In this document: positions 1 to 53,579 of the stretch, piece by piece | Position numbering within the stretch: position 1 is the first letter of the stretch | Layout: the number at the start of each line of letters is the position of its first letter | Source: an uncultured Alphaproteobacteria bacterium | Lineage (GTDB): Bacteria; Pseudomonadota; Alphaproteobacteria; RF32; CAG-239 | DNA length: 64,000 bases | Direction: 5' to 3' | NCBI GenBank assembly: GCA_944393685.1 | Contig: CALYAW010000003.1 | Coordinates: forward strand, 46,133-110,132 | Position numbers and translations under genes: made by a program | Notes under the pieces: model-generated | Told to the model about the DNA's origin: nothing | Databases searched by the model: none | Seen by the model: only the letters and a program-made list of their open reading frames with translations

Positions 1-2052
1 CTTTCTTTGTATGCTTTGTATTTTGCTTTTATGAAGACTTCTTATTCTTTTAATTTTTGGTATGTCTTAAATAATCATTTTGCGAAACTTGCAGATATTG
101 AAAAAATGGGATTACATAAAGGAATTTTGTTGGTTTTGGGAAGATTTCAGGATTATATCTTGGGCGTAACAAAACCTGCAAATATTTTGTGTATTGGCGA
201 AACTGGGTGCGGAAAAACATCGTCTGTCGCAATTCCCTCAATTTTACGTTCCGATAATGTGAGCGTTTTGGCTGTTGATAATGCCGGAACTTTAGCCAGG
301 CACACCAGTGGTCACAGAGCTGAAATCGGTAAAGTTTTTTATTTTAATTGGGATTTGGCTGATGATATTGATAAAGGAATTTTTTATCCTAAGTGGAATC
401 CTTTATGTATTGCTCAATTGCCCCCAAAGGGAAAAAAACGTGACGATTATCTTAAAAAAATTGCTTCTTGTTTGATTGCTGCCGATGAGGAGCATGAAGA
501 AGGAAATTATTGGTATTGGTTGAGTGAAAATGTTATGAACACAATGCTTGCTTTTTTGGTGGCAAAAATTTCGCAAGCTATGGCAAATGATTATTTCTTG
601 GATAAAATTTTGGAAAAACATTCTCTTAAAAAAGAAGAAAAAGAGGTCTTGCTTAGCTATTATTTAATGATGCCAGATGAGCTTACCCATGATATTGTCA
701 ATAAGTTGAAAAAATCTCCAATAATCAATGCCGAAGATTATATCCCTATCGGAAGCTGGGATGGTATTCCCGATTGTTGGAAAGGAAAAGATTTGTGTCT
801 GGCAATGTTGACCGATTGGTTGTTGCAAAATTATTTAGTTGCCAAGGACAAGGATAACCGTAATGATTGGCGAGTTTGGTTGGAAAAATTGATCGTTGAA
901 GCCGGTGTATTTAATTACGGAAGTAATATTATTCATGGAATTGAACAATTTTTGTATTTGTCTAAGCAACAGCGACAAATTGTTTTTGTTTGTATGGTGA
1001 GGCCATTAAAAAGTTTTATTAATCAGCTTGTCAGAGAAAAAACAAGTGTTAACGATTTTAATGTTGCGGATTTTCATGGTATTAAAAACAAGGAAACAGG
1101 TAAAATTGAGCCTGTGACGGTTTATGTGGTTGCAAATACGCGCAGCTCCAAATTCGTTAGCAGAATATTCATGGAATTGATGCTGGAACAGGGTGTTGTG
1201 GAGGGGAAAGCAAAAGGCGCATTTCCTTTGTTGGTGGTTCTTGATGATGTTGGTCAGATGCTTAAAGTGACAACACTGCCTGCTGCCGTCGCAAAAGGTG
1301 CTGCTATGAGGACATCGTTTTTGTTGTTGTGTAATAGTCTTAATAGTGTCGAAAATATGTATACTAAAGAAACATTGGAAGAATTGGTTTGTAATTCAAA
1401 TTATAAGATTATTATGGCTGATGATAATAAAAAAATGAGTAGACAGTTGAAAAAACTGGCAATTTTTGCCACAAGGTCTGTGCAGATTTCTTTGGATAAA
1501 AGAAGATCTTTGAGATCTCGTCGTGTTTATGCCGATGCTAATTATTTTCACCGTTTGGCTAAGGATTTTGAAACAAATCATAATCTGCGTATTAAGACAC
1601 GCGATTATCAGGTGGTTTTAGTTGAAGGTTATTATAATCGTCCAATTTTGGCTCGTAATATTCATTATATCAAAGATGATAAGTTTAAGGAAAAGGCAAT
1701 AAAAGAGGCTTGTTATGCCTTAAATGAGCAAGTTATTGCAAATCGAAATATTCAAGATGCCGGAACTCCCTCAATAGATGAAGTGCTTGCTGATATTGAT
1801 TTGGGTATAGATGATGAAATAGAATTAAAACAGTTTATGAATATGGCTTATGACGATGTTAAAAGCAAGATGCCTTCAGAAACAGATGTTAACAGCGTGA
1901 TTGCTAATGATATTTCTGAAAAATGGCATGGAGAGATTGAGCAAAATGGTAAGCAAAAAATATCGTCGCCACATGATGAATGGTGGTTAGGCGAAAAAGC
2001 TTTTGGTATTGGAAATCCTTCCAATACACAAAATCCATTTGCTAAAAAATAG
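1..2052 (+). CDS. Type IV secretion coupling protein-like P-loop NTPase (VirD4/TraG/TrwB family), 5'-truncated at the window edge
   Basis: The reading frame is open to position 1, so the TTG at 7 is not a real start. A Walker A motif GETGCGKTS is followed by VAIPSIL..VLAVDNAG..NPL, and later by a hydrophobic LLVVLDDVGQM (Walker-B-like) segment. This order of motifs is typical of T4SS coupling proteins. The N-terminal membrane domain would lie upstream of the window. Confidence 0.5.
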   Translation, partial: LSLYALYFAFMKTSYSFNFWYVLNNHFAKLADIEKMGLHKGILLVLGRFQDYILGVTKPANILCIGETGCGKTSSVAIPSILRSDNVSVLAVDNAGTLARHTSGHRAEIGKVFYFNWDLADDIDKGIFYPKWNPLCIAQLPPKGKKRDDYLKKIASCLIAADEEHEEGNYWYWLSENVMNTMLAFLVAKISQAMANDYFLDKILEKHSLKKEEKEVLLSYYLMMPDELTHDIVNKLKKSPIINAEDYIPIGSWDGIPDCWKGKDLCLAMLTDWLLQNYLVAKDKDNRNDWRVWLEKLIVEAGVFNYGSNIIHGIEQFLYLSKQQRQIVFVCMVRPLKSFINQLVREKTSVNDFNVADFHGIKNKETGKIEPVTVYVVANTRSSKFVSRIFMELMLEQGVVEGKAKGAFPLLVVLDDVGQMLKVTTLPAAVAKGAAMRTSFLLLCNSLNSVENMYTKETLEELVCNSNYKIIMADDNKKMSRQLKKLAIFATRSVQISLDKRRSLRSRRVYADANYFHRLAKDFETNHNLRIKTRDYQVVLVEGYYNRPILARNIHYIKDDKFKEKAIKEACYALNEQVIANRNIQDAGTPSIDEVLADIDLGIDDEIELKQFMNMAYDDVKSKMPSETDVNSVIANDISEKWHGEIEQNGKQKISSPHDEWWLGEKAFGIGNPSNTQNPFAKK

Positions 2053-12756: not shown

Positions 12757-13605
12757 ATGGCAAATTGGAAAGAAAAAATGGACGCCCGCTATGGTAAGAA
12801 TACAGAGCAAGAGTTGCCATATTGGGATGGTACGATGCTTCCCGAGCGTAAAGAAGAATTGGCAGCAAGAGGGTATGAATTTATTGATCGTTCACTTGCA
12901 TTGCTTTGGGTAAAAGGGTATCGTGTCGTAAAAAGTAGTGCTTTTACACCAAAAGGAATTTATGATCGGGATCATGTAGAGCCTGTTGAGGGAAAGCCTG
13001 CTGCTGATAATCTTTTTTTTGAACAAAACTTTGATCCCGTAGAGTTTATGTCTATTTACAATAAGTATGGTCGTTATGAAAACAATTTTCCGGTTTATTT
13101 TGATGGAACGGCTGAATCTTATAGTGCTTATGCTCAAAAAAGTGATATTTTTGTATTGGAAGAAATTGCAACGAATAAGCCGGTTGGTTTTGCTTCTTTT
13201 CAATTGATAAATGCAGGTACTTCTGAGGCAAAAGAAATGGAAGCTGAGGGGATTTTTGTTAAAAATAAATTGGTTTATAATGATACAATAGCAATATCGT
13301 CCGCTTTGCAAGGTAAAGGATTGGGAAAAATATTCTCTGATGTTTTAGATGCTTATTACGTTCAGAATTTTGGTGTCGATGCTGATTATGCTCTTTGTAC
13401 CGGAGCTATTAATACTAATGATCATAATGATTTAGCTAAGGGGTTTCATGGTGATAAGCGTGGATACGGAAACTGGGTTGAAAATACGGGGTTGCTGAAA
13501 AAATGGATTGCTCGTTGGAAACAAGATAATATTGAAAAAAAAGGACCAAATATTAAACCTGCTTTTATGAAAAATTCTTATTTAAATCCTCCTCGTCGTG
13601 GATAA
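12757..13605 (+). CDS. Hypothetical protein with a C-terminal GNAT-like acetyltransferase motif
   Basis: LQGKGLGKIF resembles GNAT motif A (Q/R-x-x-G-x-G/A). The N-terminal roughly 150 aa are unassigned. Confidence 0.4.
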   Translation: MANWKEKMDARYGKNTEQELPYWDGTMLPERKEELAARGYEFIDRSLALLWVKGYRVVKSSAFTPKGIYDRDHVEPVEGKPAADNLFFEQNFDPVEFMSIYNKYGRYENNFPVYFDGTAESYSAYAQKSDIFVLEEIATNKPVGFASFQLINAGTSEAKEMEAEGIFVKNKLVYNDTIAISSALQGKGLGKIFSDVLDAYYVQNFGVDADYALCTGAINTNDHNDLAKGFHGDKRGYGNWVENTGLLKKWIARWKQDNIEKKGPNIKPAFMKNSYLNPPRRG

Positions 13606-19948: not shown

Positions 19949-19984
19949 AAACCCTCCGCCTGATTGACGGAGGGTTTTGTTTTA
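19949..19984. terminator. Bidirectional rho-independent terminator between convergent genes
   Basis: The hairpin aaaccctccg cctgattga cggagggttt is flanked by T tracts on both strands. Confidence 0.6.
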
Positions 19985-21241
19985 TTTGTGTGCAACAAAT
20001 GGAACTTTGGGGGAGGTGGCATTCAAAAGACGCTGCACATATCTTCCCTGATAGAGGTTTATTCCCAGAGCATTCCCAACCTCAATGGCCGATGGATCAT
20101 CAATACGGCATAGAATCATTTTAGCGCGCTCCGCTTTGTTAACATAATCCATAAAATGTTTATCTTCATTGATGACATCCATAAATGTCGGATGCCAGAT
20201 AATTTTCATGAGATCACAGTTGAGATTGGTTCTGTTAAGATATTTGAGCTTGTCAACAGAAATTCCGTCAATGCAGATTTTATAGCCTCGTGCTTGCGCA
20301 AAGGTTTTGGCCAAAACAAAAGATTTTATATCACTGAAAATATCAGCTAATTGCAATTCAAGAATGATGCTGGGACGCATTGAGGCGCTGATTCCTTCAT
20401 CGAAAGCTAAAAATTCATCGGATAAAATGGTTGATACATTAATATTGATGCTAAAATTGCCAATAAGAGAGCCGTCATCATGACGATTAATTGTTTCAAG
20501 AACCCTTTTATCCAGAGTCTCGCTTAAAGATAGGAAAAGCCACGGATTGGAAACCAAATCAACATCAGGTAAAAGCATTTCTCTTAAATCGGGAATTGAG
20601 ACATAAACTTCCTCAAAAACACGCAAAGGCGCAGATTTTCCTATAACTGCGCATATGGCTTGCCTGCGTATAAAGCTGGAAAAATCCGCTACTGAAAGAA
20701 TTTTTTGAACACGGGCTAAAATGTCTGGAGTAAATGGTTTTTTTTGTTTTCCTTGAGAAGATGAGCCTATTGTATTCATAACAAAAGGCGTGCTTTTTTT
20801 TACTTGCAGTTTAACCTGATTTTGTTGGTGACTTAATCTACTTACTAAATGATAAAACTCTTTCTTGTCTCCAACCATATTGTAAAATTTGATGAACCCA
20901 ATAGCTTCCAAATTGTCGGAGTTTTTTAATAGTATATCATCATGAAACATAAAACGAATTTTGACAAGACAAGATAAAATTTCATCCTTGATACGGCGAT
21001 TATATATGACGATTACATCTTCATTGGCAAACCAAAAATAACGAGCCATTGCTTTTGAAACAAATGCTGCAAATGTATCCGCCAACTCTTGGCGATGAGA
21101 ATCGCGGATATTTTTATTTTCGAGCTTGGATACACTGATGTAGATAGCATCATATTCATTAATGCTGTCGTCAAGTCGTCGTAAATATTCTGCTACGGCA
21201 ATGTCGGTTCGAAGAGAACGTGTTTCAGTTTTATTGTCCAT
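19982..21241 (-). CDS. Hypothetical protein, paralog A; C-terminal half resembles a degenerate EAL (c-di-GMP phosphodiesterase-like) domain
   Basis: The C-terminal segments KICIDGIS..LKYLNRTNLNCDLMKI and MILCRIDDPSAIEVGNALGINLYQG parallel the EAL motifs lalDDFGtG...dilKiD and vvAEGVEt..LGcd.aQG. No EAL catalytic motif is recognisable. It is homologous along its whole length to the adjacent gene. Confidence 0.55.
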   Translation of the reverse strand: MDNKTETRSLRTDIAVAEYLRRLDDSINEYDAIYISVSKLENKNIRDSHRQELADTFAAFVSKAMARYFWFANEDVIVIYNRRIKDEILSCLVKIRFMFHDDILLKNSDNLEAIGFIKFYNMVGDKKEFYHLVSRLSHQQNQVKLQVKKSTPFVMNTIGSSSQGKQKKPFTPDILARVQKILSVADFSSFIRRQAICAVIGKSAPLRVFEEVYVSIPDLREMLLPDVDLVSNPWLFLSLSETLDKRVLETINRHDDGSLIGNFSININVSTILSDEFLAFDEGISASMRPSIILELQLADIFSDIKSFVLAKTFAQARGYKICIDGISVDKLKYLNRTNLNCDLMKIIWHPTFMDVINEDKHFMDYVNKAERAKMILCRIDDPSAIEVGNALGINLYQGRYVQRLLNATSPKVPFVAHK

Positions 21242-22523
21242 CAGTTTGTCCTAGTATTTTTTCTAAAATTTCAGGGTAACGGCATTGACGACGGTTTACA
21301 CCGGTAATAAGACGGCGACGTTTAAGGCACTCTGTCGCAGAACAATGTTGTGCATCCGGACAGTGTGAGCGAATGAGCGCTGTTTCCAAGGTATCCATAT
21401 AAGGACCTTGAAAATTGCGGATGCCATATGAAATTCCCCAGCGTAACGCCTTTTCATCTGTACATTTTGCAAGAATAATACGATTACTGCCAAAGCGATT
21501 GATGATGTCATGGAGTTCTTGATTGTTGGTGTCAAATTCCATCATGGGATTCCAGAAAATCTTTATTAAATCTGGTTCTAGTCTGTTTATATCTATTAAA
21601 GAGAGTGTTTCGGGAATTAACCCGTCTATTAAAATTTGATGGCCTTGTTTGTGTAATTTTTCTTTGGCTTCAAAATAACTCTCCAGTTTGTTAAAAATAT
21701 CCATCATTTGCACTTCTGCAATTATTTGCGGATGATTGACAGGGCCGTCGGTTAGGAATGTGTCAAATTCCGGAGTAAATATTGAAGATAAATGCATATT
21801 TAAGCTGATGCATTGAGGCCAATTTTTTATGTCTGCTGCTTGAAAAGATGCTATCGTTTTTTTATCAAGAGCTTGTGTCAGATATAAAAACAACCATTTA
21901 TTGGCGGTGATATCCATATTCTTATCATATTGCGCGCTGAGATCTTTGACCGCTACAAAAAATTCTTGAAACATGACGCGAAATTGGTTGGCGTTTTCAA
22001 GACGGATAATACTTTGATGCTTAATTAATTCCGGAACATTTATAGCATCAAGGTGAGCAAGTACGCCTTCCATTTGTGAGGCTTCTATCGGGTATTTGAG
22101 GTTTGAAAAATCAGGAAGGCTCGCATTATTTAGCTGCTCTTGTATGTATTCGTACAATGTATAAAAATCATTCGGGAAATTGTATAAATGCGCAAATTCT
22201 GAAATATTGGCATTGAACAAAATAGGGTCAGAAGCCAGACCTTTGCGCAATTTATCCACCGCATTAGAAACAATGTTCTCGGTAATATTTTTGCCCAAAA
22301 TAACAAAGTCACCGCTGTTTAGAATATACATCATTCCCTCTGCTGCGCCAACCAAATCATCAAATAGCTTGGCAATAATTTTGATGAATGAGGGATGGCG
22401 ATTTTTGGGCTTGAGTTTGGACAGACTTACGTATAGCGCTGAATAGGCGGAGTGGCTGCGAGCAATCCGGTCTAGCGTATCGAGCAGGTTTTTTTCGGCA
22501 ACAAATCTGTTGGCTTGTGACAT
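21231..22523 (-). CDS. Hypothetical protein, paralog B (degenerate EAL-like C-terminus plus Cys-rich tail)
   Basis: It aligns with paralog A, for example YSALYVSLSKLKPKN against YDAIYISVSKLENKN and ILIDGLIPETLSLIDINRLEPDLIKI against ICIDGISVDKLKYLNRTNLNCDLMKI. I place the start at the ATG at 22523 (MSQANRF) by alignment with the paralog. The longer ORF reaching 22724 would overlap the divergent ferredoxin start. Confidence 0.55.
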   Translation of the reverse strand: MSQANRFVAEKNLLDTLDRIARSHSAYSALYVSLSKLKPKNRHPSFIKIIAKLFDDLVGAAEGMMYILNSGDFVILGKNITENIVSNAVDKLRKGLASDPILFNANISEFAHLYNFPNDFYTLYEYIQEQLNNASLPDFSNLKYPIEASQMEGVLAHLDAINVPELIKHQSIIRLENANQFRVMFQEFFVAVKDLSAQYDKNMDITANKWLFLYLTQALDKKTIASFQAADIKNWPQCISLNMHLSSIFTPEFDTFLTDGPVNHPQIIAEVQMMDIFNKLESYFEAKEKLHKQGHQILIDGLIPETLSLIDINRLEPDLIKIFWNPMMEFDTNNQELHDIINRFGSNRIILAKCTDEKALRWGISYGIRNFQGPYMDTLETALIRSHCPDAQHCSATECLKRRRLITGVNRRQCRYPEILEKILGQTDGQ

Positions 22524-22638
22524 CTGATCCTCATGATTGACATTTTGCTTTCTATCATAATCCCGCTTTGTATTTATATCAAGAAAATTACCATTGTTTT
22601 CCTCGCTAAAAATAAGTTTTAATTTTTGACTATTTCTG

Positions 22639-22667
22639 TTGCGTTTTGGGGAGCTTGTCGATATAAT
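22639..22667 (+). promoter_or_regulatory. Candidate sigma70-type promoter of the hydrogenase operon
   Basis: TTGCGT, a 17-nt spacer, then TATAAT. A GGAGG ribosome-binding site lies 7 nt upstream of the ATG at 22699. Confidence 0.35.
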
Positions 22668-22698
22668 TTTTGTAAATATTTTTTGAGTTGGAGGAAAA

Positions 22699-22968
22699 AT
22701 GGCTTCGACAATAAAAGTTTGCATGGGTAGCTCATGTTTTGCTCGCGGAAATTCTAAAAATCTTCAGGTGATACAGAGCTTTTTGGAAAGTCACAATCTC
22801 AATGCCGAGGTCGAACTTACGGGGCTGCGTTGTTGTGATTGTTGTTCTAAGGGGCCAAATATTACGATTGACGGAACAGAATATAACAATGTGGAAAGCG
22901 GAATGCTCTATGATATATTAGAGAAGCATTTTTTGAAAACCGGTTCTGAGGATAAAAACAATGTCTAA
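22699..22968 (+). CDS. Thioredoxin-like [2Fe-2S] ferredoxin (NuoE/HndA-like)
   Basis: An 89-aa protein with CMGSSC ... CCDCC (C-x4-C ... C-x3-C). It is the first gene of the operon. Confidence 0.6.
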   Translation: MASTIKVCMGSSCFARGNSKNLQVIQSFLESHNLNAEVELTGLRCCDCCSKGPNITIDGTEYNNVESGMLYDILEKHFLKTGSEDKNNV

Positions 22969-24742
22969 TCGTGATTTTCCGTTATATACCGTCAAAAATG
23001 ATTGTCAGGATTGTTATAAATGTGTGCGCAGGTGTCCTGTTAAGGCAATTAAAATTGAGGATAATTCGGCGATGATTGTGCCGGAATTATGTATTGCCTG
23101 TGGTATTTGTTATGAAGTGTGTCCTGCTAAGGCTAAACAGCCTCGAAATGACTTGTCTCGCGCCAAATATTTGGTTTCCTCTAATCGAGAAATATATGTA
23201 TCTTTGGCGCCATCTTGGGTAACGGAATTTCCTCAATATACTAAAGAACAAATTGTTGCCGCAATCAGACGGCTTGGTATTAAAGGGGTGAGTGAAACTG
23301 CTCTCGGTGCTCAGGAAGTGACAGCCTCAACGGTGGAGCTGTTAAAAGATTGTGTGAATAAAAAAGAGAATCGGCTGCTGATTTCAACTGCTTGTCCAGC
23401 TGTCGTCGAATATATTGAAAAGTATTTACCGGAATTGACGCCTTGTTTGACGCCGTTGGCTTCTCCTTTATTGGCTCATTGCAGAATTTTAAAAGAAACT
23501 TTCGGGCAAAATATAGAAACGATTTTTATAGGTCCTTGTATCGCTAAAAAATTTGAAGCAGACAGACATCCTGAATTATTGTCTTTAGCTTTGAGTTTTG
23601 AAGATTTGCGCCAATGGTTGAAAGATGAAAATATTAATCCCTCAGAGTTGACGCCAGGTGTTTTCGATGTGTTTTCTCCCTCGGTTGCCAAAGAAGGTTG
23701 TGCTTATCCGATTGAGGGAGGAATGATTGAGACTATTAAACCGCATAATCTATCGGCAGATGTTTATATGGCCCAAATTACCGGAATTTATAGCCTACAG
23801 GAGGAGTTATCTCATATCGATGCCGAACATTTGACCAAACCTACTTTCTTGGAATGTTTGGCTTGTTATGGCGGCTGTGTGTCAGGTCCTTGTACTTCAA
23901 ATAATGGATCTGGATTACAAAAACGTATGGATGTATTAAAAAATTCATGTTTTGATGAAGCTGCTACTCGTACCCCTCAATATAATATTAAGCAAAATTA
24001 TACGGCGCAAAAGGTCGGCGGACTAAACAAAAATTTTGAAGAAAGCGACATACGAAAAGTACTGACCAAAATTGGCAAGTATAGTATTGAAGATGAGCTT
24101 AACTGTGGCGGATGTGGCTATAATACTTGTCGTAATTTTGCTTGCGCTTTGTTGGAAGGAAAAGCTGAACCTGAAATGTGTGTTTCTCATATGAAGCACC
24201 AAGCTCAGCGTAAGGCAAATGCGCTGATTCGTTGTATCCCGTCTCCTATAGTGATTGTTGATGCTAAGCTCAATATTATGGAATATAATGATCAGTTTCG
24301 AGATACTTTTTGGAATGAAGAAGAACATGCCGATATCTATGATTATAATAATTTATATGGTGCTAATCTTCGTGATTTTGTCAGCTTTACCAATTTGTTT
24401 TCGGCTTCTTTGGAGTTGGAGCAGGATATTCATAAAGAGCATGTTCGTCATGAAGACAAAATGTTTGATGTCGTAGTCTTTAATATTGATAAAAAACAAA
24501 GTGTCGGTGGAATTATTGAAGATGTGACCAATGCTGAAATGCATAAAGAAAAAATTGCTGAAAAAGCCAGAGAAGTTATTCATAAAAATTTGGCAACGGT
24601 GCAGCAAATTGCGTGTACACTTGGTGAGCATATGGCTGAAACGGAGGTTTTGCTGCGTTCAATTGCCAAAGATTATGCCACTACGGATAGGGAAAACGAG
24701 GGGATTAAAATTCGTACCAATTCTACCGAAAGGAAATTTTAA
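22961..24742 (+). CDS. Putative sensory [FeFe]-hydrogenase (HydS-like): 2x[4Fe-4S] ferredoxin domain, H-cluster domain, extra Cys4 motif and C-terminal PAS domain
   Basis: N-terminal CxxCxxCxxxCP repeats. H-domain motifs L2 (GPCIAKKFE) and L3 (ECLACYGGCVSGP) are present. L1 reads TACP rather than the canonical TSCCP. Then comes a CGGCGYNTCRNFAC cluster and a PAS-like C-terminus. The gene overlaps the upstream ferredoxin by 8 nt. Confidence 0.65.
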   Translation: MSNRDFPLYTVKNDCQDCYKCVRRCPVKAIKIEDNSAMIVPELCIACGICYEVCPAKAKQPRNDLSRAKYLVSSNREIYVSLAPSWVTEFPQYTKEQIVAAIRRLGIKGVSETALGAQEVTASTVELLKDCVNKKENRLLISTACPAVVEYIEKYLPELTPCLTPLASPLLAHCRILKETFGQNIETIFIGPCIAKKFEADRHPELLSLALSFEDLRQWLKDENINPSELTPGVFDVFSPSVAKEGCAYPIEGGMIETIKPHNLSADVYMAQITGIYSLQEELSHIDAEHLTKPTFLECLACYGGCVSGPCTSNNGSGLQKRMDVLKNSCFDEAATRTPQYNIKQNYTAQKVGGLNKNFEESDIRKVLTKIGKYSIEDELNCGGCGYNTCRNFACALLEGKAEPEMCVSHMKHQAQRKANALIRCIPSPIVIVDAKLNIMEYNDQFRDTFWNEEEHADIYDYNNLYGANLRDFVSFTNLFSASLELEQDIHKEHVRHEDKMFDVVVFNIDKKQSVGGIIEDVTNAEMHKEKIAEKAREVIHKNLATVQQIACTLGEHMAETEVLLRSIAKDYATTDRENEGIKIRTNSTERKF

Positions 24743-24745
24743 TCA

Positions 24746-25921
24746 ATGAGCGATTCTTTATTTATTGAAATTGGCTCTGCTCAGCAACAAAAAAATGGCG
24801 AAGATTGTTTCGGTGATACGGTCTATTCAAAAAAAATTCCCGAAGAAAGACGTATTATTTCTATCTTGTCCGATGGTCTTGGCTCCGGTGTTAAAGCTAA
24901 TATTTTATCTTCAATGACCACGCGGATGGCAATGAAATTTGTAGAAAGCAATATGGAGCTGATGCATTCATCGGAAGTAATGATGGACGCATTACCCGTT
25001 TGTCAAATTCGAAAAATAAGTTATGCAACATTTTCGGTAGTGGATACGCAGCTAGACGGAAAAACCCGCATTTTTGAAATGGACAATCCTCCGTTTATGT
25101 TTATTCGAGATAATAAAGCTGTTAACGTGCGGTATAGAGAAATATATTCCGAAAAGTGGAAAGACAGAACTATTAATATATCACAACTGACCAATCAAGA
25201 AGAAGATCGTATTATTTTAATGTCAGATGGTGTTACTCAGGCGGGAATCGGAAACAAAAATTATCCGCTGGGGTGGCAACGTCAAGGTTGTTTGGATTTT
25301 GTTTTGGAAAAAATTCGTAAGAATCCAACTATTTCTGCAAGTGATTTGGCAAATGCAATTGTTCAAGAAGCCATAAGTAAAGAGCTTAATCATAAGGCCG
25401 GAGACGATATAAGTTGTGTCGTTCTGTATTTTCGAAAGCCAAGAAAATTATTGGTTTTGACTGGACCTCCGTTTGATGAAAAACGAGATGCCGAGTTTGC
25501 GGAATTGGTGTCAAGTTATGATGGTAAAACAGCTATTTGCGGAGGAACAACCGCTAATATTATTGAGCGCGAATTGTGCCTAAAGTGTGAAATAGATAAA
25601 ACATCATTTGATGAGAAAATTCCGATGTGCTCTATTATGGATGGTATAGATTTGGTCACGGAAGGAATTTTAACCTTGACGGAAGTGTATCGTATGTTAA
25701 AAGAAGGCATAGATACCAATAAAAATAACGGAGCTACTCGGTTGGCAAAGTTGCTGTTGGACAGCGATAAGATTGATTTTGTGGTCGGTACTAAAATCAA
25801 TATTGCTCACCAAGATCCTAATTTGCCTATGGAGCTGGAGATAAGACGTAATATCGTCAAAAAAATCTTTAGAATTCTGCAGGATAAATATCTGAAGGAA
25901 ATTAGTGTTAAATACATATAG
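24746..25921 (+). CDS. PP2C-family serine/threonine phosphatase (SpoIIE/RsbU-like) with a roughly 150-aa C-terminal extension of unknown fold
   Basis: An N-terminal PP2C-like core (ILSDGLGSGVKANILSSMTT..., MSDGVTQ, GDDISCVVL) followed by an unassigned C-terminal region. It lies 4 nt after the hydS-like gene. Confidence 0.6.
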   Translation: MSDSLFIEIGSAQQQKNGEDCFGDTVYSKKIPEERRIISILSDGLGSGVKANILSSMTTRMAMKFVESNMELMHSSEVMMDALPVCQIRKISYATFSVVDTQLDGKTRIFEMDNPPFMFIRDNKAVNVRYREIYSEKWKDRTINISQLTNQEEDRIILMSDGVTQAGIGNKNYPLGWQRQGCLDFVLEKIRKNPTISASDLANAIVQEAISKELNHKAGDDISCVVLYFRKPRKLLVLTGPPFDEKRDAEFAELVSSYDGKTAICGGTTANIIERELCLKCEIDKTSFDEKIPMCSIMDGIDLVTEGILTLTEVYRMLKEGIDTNKNNGATRLAKLLLDSDKIDFVVGTKINIAHQDPNLPMELEIRRNIVKKIFRILQDKYLKEISVKYI

Positions 25922-25938: not shown

Positions 25939-26208
25939 ATGGCAAATAAAGTAAAAGTCAGAATCTGCGTCGGCACTTCCTGTTTTGTGATGGGAGCTGC
26001 TCAAATCCAGTCGTTGGAATTTAATGCTCCCGCCGATATTGCCGAGCAAATAGAAATTGTTGAAGAACGTTGCATGAATTTGTGTAAGGATGTCAAAACA
26101 AAATACAATAACGGACCGTTTGTTTTTGTTAATGATGAATTGGTTGAAGAAGCTACCTATGAAAAAGTCGTGAATAAAATTCGCGAAGAAATTAAAAAAA
26201 GCTGTTAA
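25939..26208 (+). CDS. Thioredoxin-like [2Fe-2S] ferredoxin (second copy)
   Basis: An 89-aa protein with CVGTSC ... CMNLC (C-x4-C ... C-x3-C). Confidence 0.6.
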   Translation: MANKVKVRICVGTSCFVMGAAQIQSLEFNAPADIAEQIEIVEERCMNLCKDVKTKYNNGPFVFVNDELVEEATYEKVVNKIREEIKKSC

Positions 26209-26237: not shown

Positions 26238-27698
26238 ATGTTGATACCTAAGAATAACGCAAACTTAATGCGTACAAAAATTTTGATTAAATTAGCAGAA
26301 AGTTATTTGCAAGATAAATTTGCACAAGCTGACAGAATTCCTTTGGAACTGCGTCCAAAAGACATGCAGTCTAGTCGGTGTTGCATATATAAAGACAGAG
26401 CCGTTTTGAAGTATCGCTGTATGGCTGGGTTGGGGCATTGTCCTGAAGAAGAACAAGATGAGTTAATAACTTTGAAAGAGTATGGCGAGCAGGCTTTAGA
26501 GAGAAAAGAAGCTCCTAAAAATAAACTGTCGGTGATAGATATTGCTTGTTCGGCTTGTGTTAAGTCTCAATATGTTATTACGGATGTTTGTCGGGGTTGT
26601 TTTGCTCAGCCCTGCCGTTTGAACTGTCCAAAAGAAGCTATTTCAATTATTAAAGGGCGCGCTCATATTGATCCTGACAAATGTGTTAATTGCGGTAAGT
26701 GTTTTGAAGTTTGTCCTTATCATTCGGTAGTTAAAATTCCTGTTCCTTGTGAAGAAGCTTGTCCGGTGGGCGCTATTACAAAAGATGAATCGGGCAAAGA
26801 ACATATTGATACCGAAAAATGTATTTCTTGCGGAAAATGTTTGGCTTCTTGTCCGTTCGGTGCTATCGTCGAGCGGTCGCAAATGATTGATGTTATGCGT
26901 GAGATTAAAGAGACCGATAAACATGTGGTCGCAATGTTGGCTCCGGCAATTTCCGGACAATTTCCTGGTTCCCTTAACGCGTTGGTTGGCGCATTGAAAA
27001 AGTTTGGTTTTTCAGATGTGATTGAGGTTGCTGTCGGTGCTGATATTACCACGCAGAAAGAAGCGGCAGAATTTGTTGAGAGAATGGAAGATGGAAAGCC
27101 TTTTATGACGACTTCTTGTTGTCCTGCTTATTTTCGGGCTGCTCAGGTGCACATTCCGGAGATTAAACCGTTTGTTTCTGATACAAAAACGCCAATGTAT
27201 TATACTGCTGAATTGGTTAAAAAAGAAGCTCCTGATTGTGTGGCTGTTTTTGTCGGTCCATGTTTGGCAAAAAGAGCTGAGGCAGAATGGGATCCAAATG
27301 TTGATTATGTCCTAACTTTTGAAGAATTGGGGGCAATGTTGGTTGCCGCTGGTATTAATGTTGATGAATGTGAAGAAATTCCATTTAATAAAATTTCTCA
27401 TGTCCAAGGAAGACAGTTTCCGGTTACGGGCGGTGTTGCTGGAGCTGTGGCTAGTTTGGTCGGAGATAAGTTTGATATTCGTCCTGAGAAGATTGATGGT
27501 TTGACCAAGGAAAATATTAAACTCTTAAAGCGCTACGCAACCAAAGGTGGTGAAAACAACATGTTGGAAGTGATGTGTTGTGAGGGAGGCTGTGTTTCCG
27601 GTCCGGGATGTATCGCTCTGTCTAAGAAAGCCGCTCGAGCCGTTGATGCATATGCTCAAACCGGCGAGGTGCTTAAAGAAGATACTAAAATAGGTTAG
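26238..27698 (+). CDS. hydA: [FeFe]-hydrogenase catalytic subunit (HydA) with N-terminal Fe-S cluster domains
   Basis: Canonical H-cluster motifs: L1 TSCCP, L2 GPCLAKRAE, L3 EVMCCEGGCVSGPG. Upstream are two CxxCxxCxxxCP ferredoxin motifs and additional Cys clusters. Confidence 0.85.
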   Translation: MLIPKNNANLMRTKILIKLAESYLQDKFAQADRIPLELRPKDMQSSRCCIYKDRAVLKYRCMAGLGHCPEEEQDELITLKEYGEQALERKEAPKNKLSVIDIACSACVKSQYVITDVCRGCFAQPCRLNCPKEAISIIKGRAHIDPDKCVNCGKCFEVCPYHSVVKIPVPCEEACPVGAITKDESGKEHIDTEKCISCGKCLASCPFGAIVERSQMIDVMREIKETDKHVVAMLAPAISGQFPGSLNALVGALKKFGFSDVIEVAVGADITTQKEAAEFVERMEDGKPFMTTSCCPAYFRAAQVHIPEIKPFVSDTKTPMYYTAELVKKEAPDCVAVFVGPCLAKRAEAEWDPNVDYVLTFEELGAMLVAAGINVDECEEIPFNKISHVQGRQFPVTGGVAGAVASLVGDKFDIRPEKIDGLTKENIKLLKRYATKGGENNMLEVMCCEGGCVSGPGCIALSKKAARAVDAYAQTGEVLKEDTKIG

Positions 27699-27702
27699 AG
27701 TT

Positions 27703-27735
27703 TAAGGCCGCAATTTAAAATTGCGGCCTTATTGT
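27703..27735 (+). terminator. Rho-independent terminator ending the hydrogenase operon
   Basis: aaggccgcaatttaaaattgcggcctt followed by attgttt. Confidence 0.6.
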
Positions 27736-36452: not shown

Positions 36453-38159
36453 TTATAAATATGTCCTGATTTCTTTATATGGTTTAATACCTAAGTCTTG
36501 TAAAGTTTTTGCAATATATGCGCTCAGATCGTTCCAAGCAGTCCAACGATCAATAAATTCTTTGGCTCGCTGTGGTGATTTGGAAAGCTGAATTTCTATT
36601 GTTTCTTGAAGGAGTTTATGCATAACTTCATCCATTTTGGCAAAATTTATTTCTAACTTTTGCTCAGAATTAAAGTTGATAGCTTTGTGTTCCAATAAAA
36701 AGTTAAAATGAATTAAATCTCCCATGCGATGTGGCTGAATCAGCTGAGGTTTACTTTTTAAAAGCATACGTACTATCCAGGTCGTGTATATTTCTTTTAA
36801 GGTTTGGTCACTAATTACTCCGGATTTTACGTATTCAGGCATGAAAGTAATGGAAATTACATCCGCTTTGTTTTCCTCAATAATGTGGTTATATATTCCC
36901 AACGCATTTTGGTAACTACTGTTGGGACCGAGTGAATGTCCGTTTTCGTGACCAATAACAAAAATATGCTCCGCTTCAGGGTTATAATAAGGATGAAGCG
37001 TTTCTGAGACCAGTGCGTGTAACATCTTGTGTGTGCGTTCAGTATCTATGTTTTGTCGAACCTGACGATGATACACATTACGGCGACCGCCGCCTAACTT
37101 TATGGAAAGTTTATCGTTGTTGGGCAAATTTTGTGCGGTGGTGATGCCCCCGCGGCATTGAGCATAATCTCCTTGTAACGTAGCCAAGTCAACGTCTACC
37201 ATGGTTTGTTTTAATTCATTGTCTGCTATATCTTGTTTGTATTTGTCTGCATAGGGCATCAGTTTCGCCAAATTTTTCATTTGTTCTTTAAATGTGAGCA
37301 GTAATTTGGTTCCTTGCGCATTAACAATACCAACTCGAACCCCCAGCGTGTCTTTGGGTGTGACTTCTATACCGGCTTCAGACAGCATTTTAACAAGGTG
37401 CGGATTATCATAGACAGTTGGGGTCATTTCGTCATCATAGTTTTCCCTACTTAATGTGAATTCAAGAGGTGTATCTTGTAAAACAGCCCAGTGTTTATCT
37501 GCCAGTTGATCCATGTCTTCATTATTTTGGAGAAGCGCTTGCACTTGCCAACCCAAATAATCATTGAACGCAGCGTTGGTTGAATAGTGTGCGGCTAATT
37601 CTAACTCGTTTGCTACTTTGCTAAAAATAGGAGCAAAATATTCCGTATAGTCGATTGCTTTTAGTTCTTTGCCGAAACGGCGAACCATGGTGCGTGCAGA
37701 AAGAATTTTGCTAACTTCTTCTGTTTTGCCTTGTTCAAGCATTTGTTCCAAAATCTTGTGGAATTCTTCAACGTCTAAATCTGTGGGATAAAAGTTGCGA
37801 CCTTTGAAAATATGTACACCTTTAAAAATTTCAATCGGTTCGGAATCTATGCCGTTTAAACCGGCAACTCCGTTAAATGAATTAAATAAGCGTAAGGCTT
37901 TGGCTGCATGAGTGTTTGATACTGCTGCTTCTAATTCGGCTTTTAATGTTAGGTTTAGGGGATGATCTTGTTCAAGAGCAACTTCATTCATCATTTTGGC
38001 GGCGCGAACCAGATAATAAAGTGCTTTTTTGTCTCCTTCAGACAGTGCACGATATCCTTCAAAATTTTGATCTATCATGTTGAAGGTTTGTATTTTATCC
38101 GCAAAAATAGCATCAAGTTCATTTTCTGGTATTGCTATTTCATACCCTTTAATCTTCAT
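36453..38159 (-). CDS. Cytoplasmic gluzincin-type zinc metallopeptidase (HExxH...E), DPP III/M49-like
   Basis: HENGH with a Glu 20 residues downstream in IIEENKAD (thermolysin-like spacing). No signal peptide. Length is 568 aa. Confidence 0.4.
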   Translation of the reverse strand: MKIKGYEIAIPENELDAIFADKIQTFNMIDQNFEGYRALSEGDKKALYYLVRAAKMMNEVALEQDHPLNLTLKAELEAAVSNTHAAKALRLFNSFNGVAGLNGIDSEPIEIFKGVHIFKGRNFYPTDLDVEEFHKILEQMLEQGKTEEVSKILSARTMVRRFGKELKAIDYTEYFAPIFSKVANELELAAHYSTNAAFNDYLGWQVQALLQNNEDMDQLADKHWAVLQDTPLEFTLSRENYDDEMTPTVYDNPHLVKMLSEAGIEVTPKDTLGVRVGIVNAQGTKLLLTFKEQMKNLAKLMPYADKYKQDIADNELKQTMVDVDLATLQGDYAQCRGGITTAQNLPNNDKLSIKLGGGRRNVYHRQVRQNIDTERTHKMLHALVSETLHPYYNPEAEHIFVIGHENGHSLGPNSSYQNALGIYNHIIEENKADVISITFMPEYVKSGVISDQTLKEIYTTWIVRMLLKSKPQLIQPHRMGDLIHFNFLLEHKAINFNSEQKLEINFAKMDEVMHKLLQETIEIQLSKSPQRAKEFIDRWTAWNDLSAYIAKTLQDLGIKPYKEIRTYL

Positions 38160-51615: not shown

Positions 51616-52413
51616 ATGATAGGACTAGAATTTCCAGATATTTCACCGATTATCTTTTCTATAGGGCCTTTGTCAATACGCTGGTATTCTATGGCTTATT
51701 TGATAGGCATTTTATTCGGCTGGCTGATGATTAATCGTAATGTTGAAAAATATCAGCTTGGGTTGGAGCGGGCGCAAGTAGAAGATTTTATATTTTATAT
51801 CACTTTCGGTATTATTATCGGAGGAAGGTTGGGGTACGCGATTTTTTACGGTGGCAGCTCAATGTGGTTAAAACCTTGGCATTTGTTAGAAATATGGAAA
51901 GGCGGTATGTCTTTTCATGGCGGGGTTGCCGGAGTTATTTTGGCAACTTGGCTTTATTCTCGCAAAATCAAGTATAGTTTTTTAGGATTAACAGATTTAG
52001 TTGTATTATATGCGCCGCTTGGTATTTTTTTAGGACGGTTGGCAAATTTTGCCAATGATGAATTATGGGGACGTGTTACGACTGTGCCATGGGCAATACG
52101 CTTTCCATCCGGTGGATATGAACCAAGACATCCTTCTCAATTGTATGAGGCTTTTTTTGAAGGACTGCTGATGTTTATTGTCTTAAATTGGTTGTGGAGA
52201 TATTCGCGTATTCGTAATGCTAAAGGTATGGTTTCGGCATTATTTGTGGTTTGTTACGGATGTTTTAGAATCGCAATGGAGCAGTTTCGCGAGCCGGATG
52301 CGCAACTTGGATTTTTCTTTGGTGGTGTTACGATGGGACAGATGTTATCTGTGCCTTTAATTGTTGTAGGGCTGTTGGTTATTTGGAGAGTATGGCCTAA
52401 ATCCGCCGCTTAG
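51616..52413 (+). CDS. lgt: Prolipoprotein diacylglyceryl transferase
   Basis: Lgt signature regions (YGLxYxxG-like IRWYSMAYLIGI, GGRLGYAIFY, FHGG) and a length of 265 aa. Confidence 0.9.
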   Translation: MIGLEFPDISPIIFSIGPLSIRWYSMAYLIGILFGWLMINRNVEKYQLGLERAQVEDFIFYITFGIIIGGRLGYAIFYGGSSMWLKPWHLLEIWKGGMSFHGGVAGVILATWLYSRKIKYSFLGLTDLVVLYAPLGIFLGRLANFANDELWGRVTTVPWAIRFPSGGYEPRHPSQLYEAFFEGLLMFIVLNWLWRYSRIRNAKGMVSALFVVCYGCFRIAMEQFREPDAQLGFFFGGVTMGQMLSVPLIVVGLLVIWRVWPKSAA

Positions 52414-53579
52414 GCTTTAGATGTAACATTATGGCTGAAACTGCGTGTCTTTTGTAAAGTTTTTCGAGCTCGGACGAGAACTTCAAAAGCACTTAAGTCT
52501 TGACGTTTCTTTTCGGAAACAGCTCCCGAGATGGTTAATTTCAGAGCTTTTTTGTGAGGGGAATATTCAAATAGAGCTGATGCAATAGATCGGCGTATGG
52601 TCTCTATTCGTTCAAAGGTTTCGTTTCTATCCAGATTTTTATAGATAATTACAAATTCGTCGTTGCTGTAGCGATAGATTATTTCTTCTTTTTCGTGTTC
52701 AAGTATTTTTGATGTAATAAGTTTTATGAGTGTGTTTTGGGTTGTTTTACCAAAATTGTCTGCCAGTTTGTCATAATCATCAATGCTAACAATACCAAAG
52801 CTGTATTTGACGGGAAGTTTTTTGACGTGAATGATAAAAGAATTTCGACTGTATAAGCCAGTAAGAGGATCATGATATGTTTCAATATAGATATTTTGGG
52901 TTATTGAGAGAAGTAAACAAATGATTGCTCCGAGGAAAAAAACTGTTAGTCCGGATGGAGTAGATGAGTAATAAAGTCCACAACTGCAAAACAAACCGAT
53001 AAAAAAAGCGTTATAATTCCAGATGTCTCCGTGGCGGACGGCATTTGTAAATGTGAAGCAAGAAAAAATGAAAAACAGGCAAAAAGATAGCGGATTAAAG
53101 CTACTTTCTGCAGCTTGATTAATTATATTTAGTATGATGTCGGCGCGACTTAGGTGTTCAGCTAGAGCAAATTCTGCAAAAAAAGCTAACAAGAGATATA
53201 AAGTATTTTTGGAAAAAAATCGGTGATTGGGCCAAAAGTAAAAAAATAGTAGGTTTAGGGGTAGAAAAATGCTTAAATTTTGATAAGCTGCTGTTGCGAC
53301 ATATGTTTCTGTACCAATCTTTTTGAGTAAGTTAATTAAGACATAAGATACAACAATACTTAACAGTATAAAAAGAGACTTGTTTAGATTAAAGTAAAGT
53401 AAAATGATTGTACATAAAAAGCTCAGGATATAGAAAAATATGTGCATTCCAACAGAGGTTTCATTTTCAAACGGAGCGCCAAGGTAAAACCACAACAACG
53501 CAAAGCCAAAGAATGCGGCCGGTATTAACATATTTGCAATCAGCGGAATTATTTTTTCTGCGAAAGCCAGTTTTTGCAT
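52410..53579 (-). CDS. Membrane-bound GGDEF-domain protein with a degenerate active site (SNDEF)
   Basis: About 230 aa of polytopic N-terminus, then DPLTGLYSRNSF ... SIDDYDKLADNFG ... YRYSNDEFVII. The GG(D/E)EF position reads SNDEF. Confidence 0.65.
   Translation of the reverse strand: MQKLAFAEKIIPLIANMLIPAAFFGFALLWFYLGAPFENETSVGMHIFFYILSFLCTIILLYFNLNKSLFILLSIVVSYVLINLLKKIGTETYVATAAYQNLSIFLPLNLLFFYFWPNHRFFSKNTLYLLLAFFAEFALAEHLSRADIILNIINQAAESSFNPLSFCLFFIFSCFTFTNAVRHGDIWNYNAFFIGLFCSCGLYYSSTPSGLTVFFLGAIICLLLSITQNIYIETYHDPLTGLYSRNSFIIHVKKLPVKYSFGIVSIDDYDKLADNFGKTTQNTLIKLITSKILEHEKEEIIYRYSNDEFVIIYKNLDRNETFERIETIRRSIASALFEYSPHKKALKLTISGAVSEKKRQDLSAFEVLVRARKTLQKTRSFSHNVTSKA

Follow-up and report, generated by a model that had tools for sequence, protein, structure and literature searches.

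Introduction

Group C [FeFe] hydrogenases are thought to decide, in gut and rumen fermenters, whether H2 is released or electrons are diverted to ethanol or lactate, and we know of no member for which H2 signal transduction has been demonstrated directly. HydDB describes its C3 type as "phosphatase-linked" and group B as "colonic-type" (PMC5037454), and definitions of the M2f and M2e subclasses, together with a Cx2Cx4Cx16C motif, have been published (PMC8163306). Among the closest described proteins, TmHydS of Thermotoga maritima is of low activity and carries A131, G177, Y223, and S267 (PMC10055695), the last of which has been proposed to raise the potential of [4Fe-4S]H. Its A131 occupies the position of the proton-relay Cys299 of CpI from C. 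pasteurianum, where Ala is the commonest residue, occurring in ~43% of sensory [FeFe] hydrogenases (PMC10055695). H2 turnover persists in TmHydS, and the A131C exchange lowers its activity instead of raising it (PMC10055695), so Ala at the C299 position is, by itself, no proof of a sensor. At the level of whole gene clusters, the Ruminococcus albus cluster that includes HydS responds to H2 level (PMC6776011), and the phenotype of hfsB deletion in Thermoanaerobacterium suggests that HfsB acts as a regulator (PMC5707799, PMC11837493).

Here we describe a hydS locus from an uncultured gut alphaproteobacterium, found in a 64-kb stretch of DNA that was analysed as a whole and is referred to below as the window. 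The hydS ORF most likely encodes a group C (M2f, HydS/HfsB-type) putative H2-sensing [FeFe] hydrogenase, which would act as the sensor of a five-gene operon. From uncultured gut Alphaproteobacteria, the locus adds a clean, compact example in which a sensor, a phosphatase, and a group B hydrogenase are combined. The example is an ordinary one, because such systems have already been described: published accounts of the family already include the Cys-to-Ala change, the extra cluster, the PAS domain, and the phosphatase linkage, and current understanding is unchanged.

Results

Organization of the hydS Operon

Five genes, fdxA, hydS, a SpoIIE/PP2C phosphatase gene, fdxB, and the group B hydrogenase gene hydB, follow one another as an operon with gaps of -8 to +29 nt (Table 1). 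A GGAGGA ribosome-binding site belongs to fdxA, whose last 8 nt, stop included, are shared with the start of hydS, and the phosphatase gene begins 3 nt past the hydS stop. In the candidate promoter the -10 hexamer is perfect and the -35 element matches at 3/6 positions, which is why the consensus scan missed it; the sites returned by the promoter scan were no more numerous than in shuffled sequence. At the other end, the terminator-like hairpin is the predicted mark of the operon's end.

Table 1. Features of the hydS operon, with nucleotide positions in the window and residue numbers of the encoded proteins.
Feature	Position	Strand	Basis
Candidate operon promoter: -10 TATAAT, with TTGCGT 17 nt upstream; ~30 nt before fdxA	22662..22667	+	Read by eye; weak
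fdxA, 89-aa thioredoxin-like [2Fe-2S] ferredoxin, HfsA-like	22699..22968	+	Pfam PF01257, E 3.6e-8
hydS, putative sensory [FeFe] hydrogenase, group C/M2f architecture	22961..24742	+	ATG start, 593 aa
N-terminal 2x[4Fe-4S] ferredoxin domain, residues 12-58	22994..23134	+	Pfam Fer4 families
H-domain, residues 77-310	23189..23890	+	PF02906, E 3.9e-47
Motif L1, S-T-A-C-P, residues 142-146	23384..23398	+	Alignments to solved hydrogenases
Motif L2, G-P-C-I-A-K-K-F-E, residues 191-199	23531..23557	+	Alignments
Motif L3, E-C-L-A-C-Y-G-G-C-V-S-G-P, residues 298-310	23852..23890	+	Alignments
C-terminal accessory [4Fe-4S] motif, C382-x2-C385-x4-C390-x16-C407	24104..24181	+	PF04060, E 1.8e-9
PAS domain, ~residues 425-523, with invariant D521-V-T523 at its end	24233..24529	+	Fold search; Pfam matches of relatives
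C-terminal helix, ~50 residues (524-573), presumed output/dimerisation helix	24530..24679	+	DSSP on AF2 models
Phosphatase, SpoIIE/PP2C-family Ser/Thr, 391 aa, HfsC-like	24746..25921	+	PF07228, E 6.4e-10
fdxB, second 89-aa thioredoxin-like [2Fe-2S] ferredoxin	25939..26208	+	PF01257, E 1.4e-5
hydB, 486-aa group B [FeFe] hydrogenase, HfsD/R. albus HydA2-like	26238..27698	+	TIGR04105
Intrinsic-terminator-like hairpin, 13-bp stem and T-rich tail, 5 nt after the hydB stop	27703..27731	+	

HydB scores 533.3 bits against the NCBIfam model TIGR04105 (cut-off 450), and its catalytic motifs are TSCCP, GPC, and EVMCCEGGC. The first-pass annotation had placed a canonical TSCCP HydA downstream of hydS; the TSCCP motif and the distance of three genes were read correctly, but the enzyme belongs to group B (TIGR04105) and is not a prototypical group A hydrogenase. 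The phosphatase lacks an N-terminal regulatory domain of its own. Its PP2C domain spans ~residues 30–228, and residues 228–391 form an uncharacterised conserved domain that has no significant Pfam or PDB sequence match and is found in 865 cluster representatives, always fused to PP2C in the same manner. A tblastn search of the 64-kb window returned no homologues of the R. albus Ser/Thr kinase, of Rex, or of adhE.

The ferredoxin-HydS-phosphatase core recurs in 77/80 of the closest related species. Among the 80 closest related loci, hydS is immediately followed by the phosphatase gene in 77 and preceded by a ferredoxin gene in most; adhE or Rex is linked in 12–13, and a homologue of the R. albus kinase in none (0/80). 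The complete five-gene set also occurs in MAGs of Alphaproteobacteria and Gastranaerophilales, and the fdxA-hydS-phosphatase trio is also found without a neighbouring group B enzyme.

The H-Cluster Ligands Are Kept and the Second Sphere Is Altered

Conservation was assessed in a set of 81 sequences, made up of the query and its 80 closest species-level relatives from several phyla. The two N-terminal [4Fe-4S] motifs consist of Cys 15, 18, 21, and 25 and Cys 44, 47, 50, and 54, all 8 of which are invariant in this alignment. The AF2 model of the H-domain has a pLDDT of ~90, and its Foldseek matches are CpI, DdH, HydABC, and CbA5H, with E values down to 5.6e-16. Within the protein, STACPAV occupies residues 142–148, PCIAKKFE residues 192–199, CYGGCVSGP residues 302–310, and CGGCGYNTCRNFAC residues 382–395. 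All four Cys ligands of the H-cluster are kept, C145, C193, C302, and C306 aligning with C300, C355, C499, and C503 of CpI, and their presence in 81/81 sequences bears out the initial reading that L2, L3, and the ligands are intact.

The change in L1 lies next to the first of these ligands. HMMER aligns the HydS segment "listACPav" with "mftsCCPsw" of HydA1 (8a6t) and with "mftsACPgwv" of the C299A variant of CpI (6gly), and therefore Ala144 stands at the position of the proton-relay Cys299 of CpI. The segment is homologous to L1, and the proposal that TACP replaces TSCCP there holds. Because Ala144 is kept in 121/121 close homologues and in 80/81 sequences of the species-level set, its presence is not due to chance.

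Further differences surround the cluster. By alignment, G191 corresponds to M353 of CpI, Y249 to F417, and L300 to M497; G191 and Y249, like the ligand Cys, are found in 81/81 sequences and L300 in 80/81. K196 of L2 corresponds to K358 of CpI, and neither K196 nor Y249, which both lie around the [2Fe] site, varies across phyla. The equivalents of E279, E282, and R286 are S, E, and D, which vary across the family, the S319 position is occupied by Thr, and none of the acidic or basic residues of the group A proton pathway is conserved in the HydS family alignment. Judged by the features of group A (an L1 TSCCP with its proton-relay Cys, M353, M497, and the E279/E282/R286/S319 pathway), HydS falls outside that group. 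The locus also defines a clade in which the second sphere of the H-cluster is a fixed Ala/Gly/Tyr/Leu set. As a marker of sensors, Gly at the M353 position was considered and rejected, since GPC occurs as well in HydB (group B) and in HydA2 of R. albus, which were aligned together with the window and R. albus HydS proteins.

HydS Carries a C-Terminal Cluster, a PAS Domain, and a Long Helix

The ligands of the accessory cluster, C382, C385, C390, and C407, are invariant in all 81 sequences, and the Cx2Cx4Cx16C motif that they form is also present in R. albus HydS. The extra cluster that had been anticipated is thus present, with one correction: its fourth ligand is C407 rather than C395, the last Cys of CGGCGYNTCRNFAC (in "NFAC"), a candidate that we rejected because this position is mostly Lys in relatives.

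Beyond the cluster, the C-terminal region carries a genuine PAS domain that is barely detectable in the query sequence itself. The query's own Pfam match has an E value of about 0.07, which does not reach the curated threshold; in relatives, the same region matches PAS_8/PAS_9 in 23/24 cases (best E 1.8e-9), and a profile of the HydS family matches the PAS domain of Aer2 (E 3e-4). The AlphaFold model of residues 405–593 has a pLDDT of 85.6, and its top 50 fold matches in the PDB are PAS domains only, in agreement with the PAS-like domain put forward in the first-pass annotation. A heme-binding PAS domain, considered in view of the best fold matches (Aer2, FixL, and DosP), was rejected because the PAS core has no conserved His. 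The best-conserved motif of the whole C-terminal region lies in the helix that follows, NLATVQQIAxxLGEHMAETE, which is also present in R. albus HydS. The PAS and helix region also contains a conserved pair of Cys residues, C425 and C552.

Taken together, the loss of the proton-relay Cys, the extra cluster, the PAS domain, the adjoining phosphatase, and the co-operonic hydrogenase are consistent with the sensor-type pattern that had been suggested for this protein, and at the level of sequence HydS has all that would be expected of a putative sensory hydrogenase of the HydS type. Through its linkage to a Ser/Thr phosphatase gene, hydS fits the C3 type of HydDB.

Discussion

A Putative Route from H2 to the Phosphatase

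We infer low turnover, high H2 affinity, and H2 sensing for the window HydS by analogy with TmHydS and TamHydS. As suggested by these two proteins, by R. albus, and by Thermoanaerobacterium genetics, the H-cluster of HydS would bind and slowly oxidise H2. [quoted passage not shown] Where adhE and Rex are linked to the cluster, as in some relatives, the phosphatase may also govern whether fermentation yields H2/acetate or ethanol, and the small [2Fe-2S] ferredoxins are probably dedicated electron partners. The C-terminal cluster of the group D protein TamHydS is not reduced by H2 (PMC13104023), which argues against the simplest redox-relay model.

A more specific proposal, which we regard as speculative and rather unlikely, is that the C-terminal module of HydS (PAS, DVT, helix, and Cys425/Cys552) and the stand-alone PP2C phosphatase with its extra domain constitute a split signalling device, which may control the group B hydrogenase or a ferredoxin directly, by way of phospho-Ser. 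Because the window lacks both the kinase gene and Rex, its output would differ from the kinase/Rex route proposed for R. albus. If true, a split device with post-translational control would mean that gut bacteria regulate hydrogenases in a new way.

Alternative Functions of HydS

HydS could instead be catalytic, as one subunit of an "Hfs" hydrogenase in which HydS, the two ferredoxins, and HydB make up a single H2-evolving complex and the PAS domain and the phosphatase serve only for fine-tuning. Indeed, the first description of hfsABCD presented it as the principal hydrogenase of T. saccharolyticum (PMC11837493), and both TmHydS and TamHydS keep measurable H2 turnover (PMC10055695, PMC8163306). 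In the window, hydS is tightly, and probably translationally, coupled with the two ferredoxin genes and the group B hydrogenase gene, and its product has an intact H-cluster site together with standard N-terminal electron-transfer clusters. We nevertheless consider such a complex unlikely: the canonical proton pathway is missing from HydS, the fdxA-hydS-phosphatase trio exists without an adjacent group B enzyme, and an hfsB-only deletion raises hydrogenase activity while hfsD alone suffices for the phenotype (PMC5707799, PMC11837493).

The dedicated [2Fe-2S] ferredoxin genes that flank hydS would also be compatible with a protein that senses the redox state of the ferredoxin pool or of NAD(H) rather than H2, its H-cluster being vestigial or only equilibrating with H2. 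Such a role would also accommodate the C425/C552 pair conserved in the PAS domain and helix, the linkage of Rex to the cluster in some relatives, and the extra C-terminal cluster, which in TamHydS is unresponsive to H2 (PMC13104023). It is very unlikely, however, given that the R. albus cluster responds to H2 level (PMC6776011) and that the four H-cluster ligands, K196, and Y249 are strictly conserved across phyla, which argues for a functional, H2-reactive site. The same invariance of the ligand Cys (81/81) makes it hardly credible that HydS is a degenerate pseudo-enzyme that has lost H-cluster binding and acquired an unrelated function. The second-sphere residues C299, M353, and M497 of group A are all replaced in HydS, and no HydEFG maturase genes are present among the ORFs annotated in the window; yet these replacements are conserved and typical of the family, as in the spectroscopically active TmHydS (PMC10055695), and maturase genes need not adjoin a hydrogenase gene.

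Comparison with Known Systems

Viewed as a group C putative H2 sensor, the window HydS has counterparts at several levels. TamHydS of Thermoanaerobacter mathranii (group D/M2e) shares the N-terminal clusters, the Cx2Cx4Cx16C motif, the lack of a C299 equivalent, and Leu at the M497 position (PMC8163306). Group D proteins, in contrast, have no PAS domain and typically carry Ser/Thr at the M353 position; because it has a PAS domain and Gly at that position, the window HydS does not belong to group D. Thermoanaerobacter HydS, which had been put forward as a comparator, is a group D protein without PAS (PMC8163306). The group C/M2f enzyme TmHydS, which has been characterised biochemically, shares the accessory clusters and a PAS domain (PMC10055695, PMC8163306), and in its second sphere, matching residues by published numbering rather than by alignment, A131, G177, and Y223 correspond to A144, G191, and Y249. 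It differs at the M497 position, at which, again by published residue numbers, TmHydS has S267 and the window clade has Leu (80/81).

At the level of the operon, the hfsABCD genes of Thermoanaerobacterium saccharolyticum and T. thermosaccharolyticum, which we compare here by their published description, likewise encode a small FeS protein and a Ser phosphatase together with two hydrogenases, one containing a PAS domain and the other linked to ferredoxin, whereas the window operon has an extra, second ferredoxin gene. The cluster of R. albus 7 on plasmid pRUMAL01 has the order Rex, adhE, kinase, fdx, fdx, HydS, SpoIIE phosphatase, HydA2, and the window operon is collinear with its hydS-phosphatase-hydA2 part. 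The window proteins are full-length homologues of their counterparts in that cluster, and the types of neighbouring genes are alike: HydB is 37% identical to HydA2 over its full length, the phosphatase is collinear with the R. albus SpoIIE phosphatase from end to end, and fdxA is homologous to both of the cluster's ferredoxins. HydS itself is 32% identical to R. albus 7 HydS (WP_013483411.1; query residues 12–568, E 3e-87). The two are collinear throughout and share the 2x[4Fe-4S] domain, GPC at L2, the Cx2Cx4Cx16C motif, the PAS domain, and a VQxIAxxLGExxAET helix. They part at L1 and at the M497 position, R. albus HydS having SSCCHS, with both Cys kept, and Ser, and the window HydS having STACP and Leu. 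The gene order differs as well, in that Rex, adhE, the kinase, and both ferredoxin genes lie upstream in R. albus, while the window is without the first three and has fdxB between the phosphatase gene and hydB.

A more distant parallel concerns the coupling of the PAS domain to the phosphatase. Bacillus subtilis RsbP contains a PAS domain, a coiled coil, and a PP2C domain within one polypeptide, and the window proteins would resemble it in coupling a PAS domain, by way of a helical linker, to a PP2C phosphatase of the SpoIIE/RsbU family. In the window, by contrast, these elements are distributed over two separate polypeptides, the input domain is a hydrogenase, the phosphatase has an extra, uncharacterised C-terminal domain, and partners of the RsbV/RsbW type were not identified. 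By this analogy, the RsbP arrangement would be split in the window between the PAS-DVT-helix module of HydS and the stand-alone PP2C.

Active site of HydS

The open reading frame hydS is real and encodes a 593-residue putative H2-sensing [FeFe] hydrogenase, in which the motif segments picked out by the first-pass annotation map to residues 142–148, 192–199, 302–310, and 382–395. In HMMER alignments to solved structures, its "listACPav" segment pairs with "mftsCCPsw" of T. kivui HydA1 (8a6t) and with "mftsACPgwv" of an engineered C299A variant (6gly) of CpI, the C. pasteurianum reference enzyme. In a PDB search with the HydS H-domain, 6gly outranks wild-type CpI because the two share an Ala in the H-cluster motif L1. 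The L1 register is unchanged in a four-way alignment of HydS, the window's group B hydrogenase HydB (TSCCP), R. albus HydA2 (SSCCP), and R. albus HydS. Since both approaches agree, TACP is homologous to L1, and the earlier reading of L1 as STACP, with Ala144 at the CpI C299 position, holds. Alignment to CpI also places HydS C145, C193, C302, and C306 at the ligands C300, C355, C499, and C503, and G191, K196, Y249, and L300 at M353, K358, F417, and M497, respectively. The CpI proton-pathway residues E279, E282, R286, and S319 correspond to S123, E126, D130, and T164.

We assessed conservation in a close set of 120 homologues (65–91% identity) and in a wider set of 81 sequences (44–81% identity) comprising HydS and its best relatives from 80 species-representative genomes of Alphaproteobacteria, Gastranaerophilales/Melainabacteria, Lentisphaerae/Victivallales, Planctomycetes, Desulfovibrio, and Geobacter-type MAGs. 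Its nearest relatives come from uncultured gut and rumen Alphaproteobacteria MAGs. Ala144 and the four ligand cysteines are invariant in the close set. In the wider set, G191, Y249, and every ligand Cys occur in 81/81 sequences, confirming that the H-cluster ligands are kept, while A144 and L300 each occur in 80. The E279, E282, and R286 equivalents are not conserved; that of S319 is Thr or Ser in 76 of the 81. Judged from these alignments, HydS and its relatives form one coherent family that keeps the H-cluster site intact and lacks the group A proton pathway.

C-terminal cluster and PAS domain

An additional cluster had also been proposed, and it is present in the C-terminal part of the protein (PF04060). 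Its conserved cysteines are C382, C385, C390, and C407, exactly the Cx2Cx4Cx16C spacing reported in M2e and M2f enzymes (PMC8163306). The fourth ligand is thus C407 and not C395, the final Cys of the segment first reported, CGGCGYNTCRNFAC, which is ruled out because most relatives carry Lys or Arg there.

At default thresholds Pfam finds no PAS domain in HydS, whose own score against PAS_8, PAS_9, and PAS reaches only E about 0.07. The homologous region of 23 of 24 diverse family members nevertheless matches PAS families (best E 1.8e-9), and a profile of the family picks up the PAS domain of Aer2 among PDB entries (E 3e-4). In the AlphaFold model of the full-length protein, which has an overall pLDDT of 70.8 and about 90 within the H-domain, residues 430–521 adopt a beta2-alpha-beta3 PAS topology, and one long helix follows. 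Residues 405–593, modeled on an 82-sequence alignment, reach pLDDT 85.6 with a core above 90, and their top 50 Foldseek matches in the PDB, including Aer2, YF1, FixL, DosP, LOV, PYP, and NifL, are all PAS domains (probability 1.00). The PAS domain first proposed is therefore present. Neither sequence nor fold search retrieved a HydS-type structure from the PDB. A heme-binding PAS is unlikely, as its core holds no conserved His. The domain is closed by an invariant D521-V-T523, which we take to be the DIT-like motif of PAS/coiled-coil linkers, and the helix of about 50 residues that follows contains NLATVQQIAxxLGEHMAETE, the most strongly conserved motif in the C-terminal region. Separately, 71 of 81 sequences have both Cys425 and Cys552, a possible redox or metal site.

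Operon and genomic setting

The five genes from fdxA to hydB form a compact same-strand operon. The predicted downstream TSCCP hydrogenase is there, but it belongs to group B (533 bits against NCBIfam TIGR04105, cut-off 450).

Features of the operon, of HydS (Pfam domains and Cys pair), and of the surrounding window
Feature	Position	Strand	Description
fdxA	22699-22968	+	Trx-like 2Fe-2S ferredoxin; 8-nt overlap with hydS start
hydS	22961-24742	+	putative sensory hydrogenase
2x[4Fe-4S] ferredoxin domain	HydS residues 12-58		
H-domain PF02906	HydS residues 77-310		[FeFe] hydrogenase; E 3.9e-47
FeS domain PF04060	HydS residues 380-408		small
Cys425	24233-24235		end of PAS N-cap helix
Cys552	24614-24616		C-terminal helix, QQIACTLGEHM
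phosphatase	24746-25921	+	SpoIIE/PP2C family
Phosphatase C-terminal domain	25427-25918		residues 228-391
fdxB	25939-26208	+	second Trx-like 2Fe-2S ferredoxin
hydB	26238-27698	+	group B hydrogenase
Terminator	27703-27731		13-bp stem, after hydB
EAL-like protein	19982-21241	-	419 aa
EAL-like protein	21231-22724	-	497 aa
GGDEF protein	52410-53579	-	diguanylate cyclase domain
Coupling protein-like	7-2052	+	window edge; type IV secretion (T4SS-DNA_transf, E 4.8e-21)
ORFs with no Pfam match at E<=1e-5	12757-13605, 36453-38159, 57909-59363		282, 568, 484 aa

The phosphatase gene, 3 nt 3' of hydS, lies directly 3' of hydS in 77 of 80 related loci; its product lacks an N-terminal regulatory domain. The full five-gene order recurs in Alphaproteobacteria and Gastranaerophilales genomes, while in Victivallales, Planctomycetes, and Deltaproteobacteria fdxA-hydS-phosphatase is followed by a different hydrogenase a few kb away, or by none within the locus.

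The phosphatase also carries a conserved C-terminal domain (motifs GPP..D, CGGTTA, DLVTEG, and AHQDP) that has no counterpart in Pfam, NCBIfam, or the sequences of the PDB. At E<=1e-3 it is found in 865 50%-cluster representatives; in the best 150 of them it is C-terminal, mostly in 380–400-residue proteins, and this placement points to a fixed "PP2C plus X" architecture.

Divergent from the operon lies a tandem pair of genes whose products match EAL domains too weakly to pass the Pfam threshold and have unannotated N-terminal regions. The longest-ORF start of the proximal one overlaps that of fdxA, so the gene probably begins further downstream. Together with the GGDEF protein, these degenerate EAL proteins suggest c-di-GMP signaling genes in the region. 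The coupling protein-like ORF may be a remnant of a conjugative element or mark its border. Elsewhere, the window holds ordinary chromosomal genes (MreB, RodA, Ddl, MiaA, MutY, UvrB, SerS, and FabF, among others); GC content is 38%.

Proposed function

By its sequence, HydS combines an H2-reactive site that lacks a fast proton relay with standard N-terminal electron-transfer clusters, the additional C-terminal cluster, and a PAS domain joined to a signaling helix. H2 binding and slow oxidation would change the state of HydS, its PAS domain and helix would modulate the phosphatase, and the phosphatase would in turn control hydB expression or activity, and adhE where linked. Two published results on related enzymes qualify this scheme: the C-terminal cluster of TamHydS (T. 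mathranii) is not reduced by H2 (PMC13104023), and the A131C variant of TmHydS (T. maritima, group C/M2f) gains no activity (PMC10055695). Overall, the original observation is confirmed and its sensory interpretation is supported. HydS is a new example of a well-described kind, of modest significance that lies mainly in its taxonomic setting; the side features of note are chiefly the phosphatase C-terminal domain, and the Cys425/Cys552 pair.

Comparison with known systems

Ala is the commonest residue at the C299 position of sensory enzymes (about 43%), and the second-sphere positions of TmHydS are A131, G177, Y223, and S267 (PMC10055695). The Thermoanaerobacter HydS initially suggested for comparison, TamHydS, belongs to group D (M2e): it lacks a PAS domain, and its M353 position is occupied by Ser (PMC8163306), which places HydS in group C rather than group D. 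In HydDB, subgroup C3 is the "phosphatase-linked" type and group B the "colonic-type" (PMC5037454), and adjacent C3 and B genes are reported in Vallitalea (PMC6163223). The Thermoanaerobacterium hfsABCD operon follows the same logic as ours, and the effects of deleting hfsB are regulatory, not catalytic (PMC5707799, PMC11837493).

The published Ruminococcus albus 7 cluster was recovered by a protein search of a plasmid collection; it sits on pRUMAL01 and runs Rex, adhE, phosphotransferase, fdx, fdx, HydS, SpoIIE phosphatase, HydA2. Its proposed role is H2 sensing and the regulation of both the ferredoxin-dependent hydrogenase and ethanol production (PMC6776011, PMC5707799). No related locus has a homologue of its "phosphotransferase" kinase. 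Its adhE/Rex arrangement resembles that of 12–13 of the 80 loci, where adhE and/or Rex lie directly upstream of fdxA-hydS (L014-L018, L025, L026, L036, L059, and others), whereas no kinase, Rex, or adhE was found in our window. R. albus HydS (L081:6977-8653) differs from HydS in keeping the Cys-Cys pair, with His for the L1 Pro (SSCCHS), and in having Ser at the M497 position. HydB and R. albus HydA2 (L081:9832-11268) both keep TSCCP/SSCCP and Met at the M497 position, and the L2 motif of each is GPC, which puts Gly at the M353 position, so Gly there is not sensor-specific. Each window protein is homologous to its R. albus counterpart over the full length (HydS 32%; HydA2/HydB 37%; phosphatase 31%, its C-terminal domain included), and the R. 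albus proteins share the NLATVQQIAxxLGEHMAETE helix motif of HydS and the "PP2C plus X" architecture of the phosphatase.
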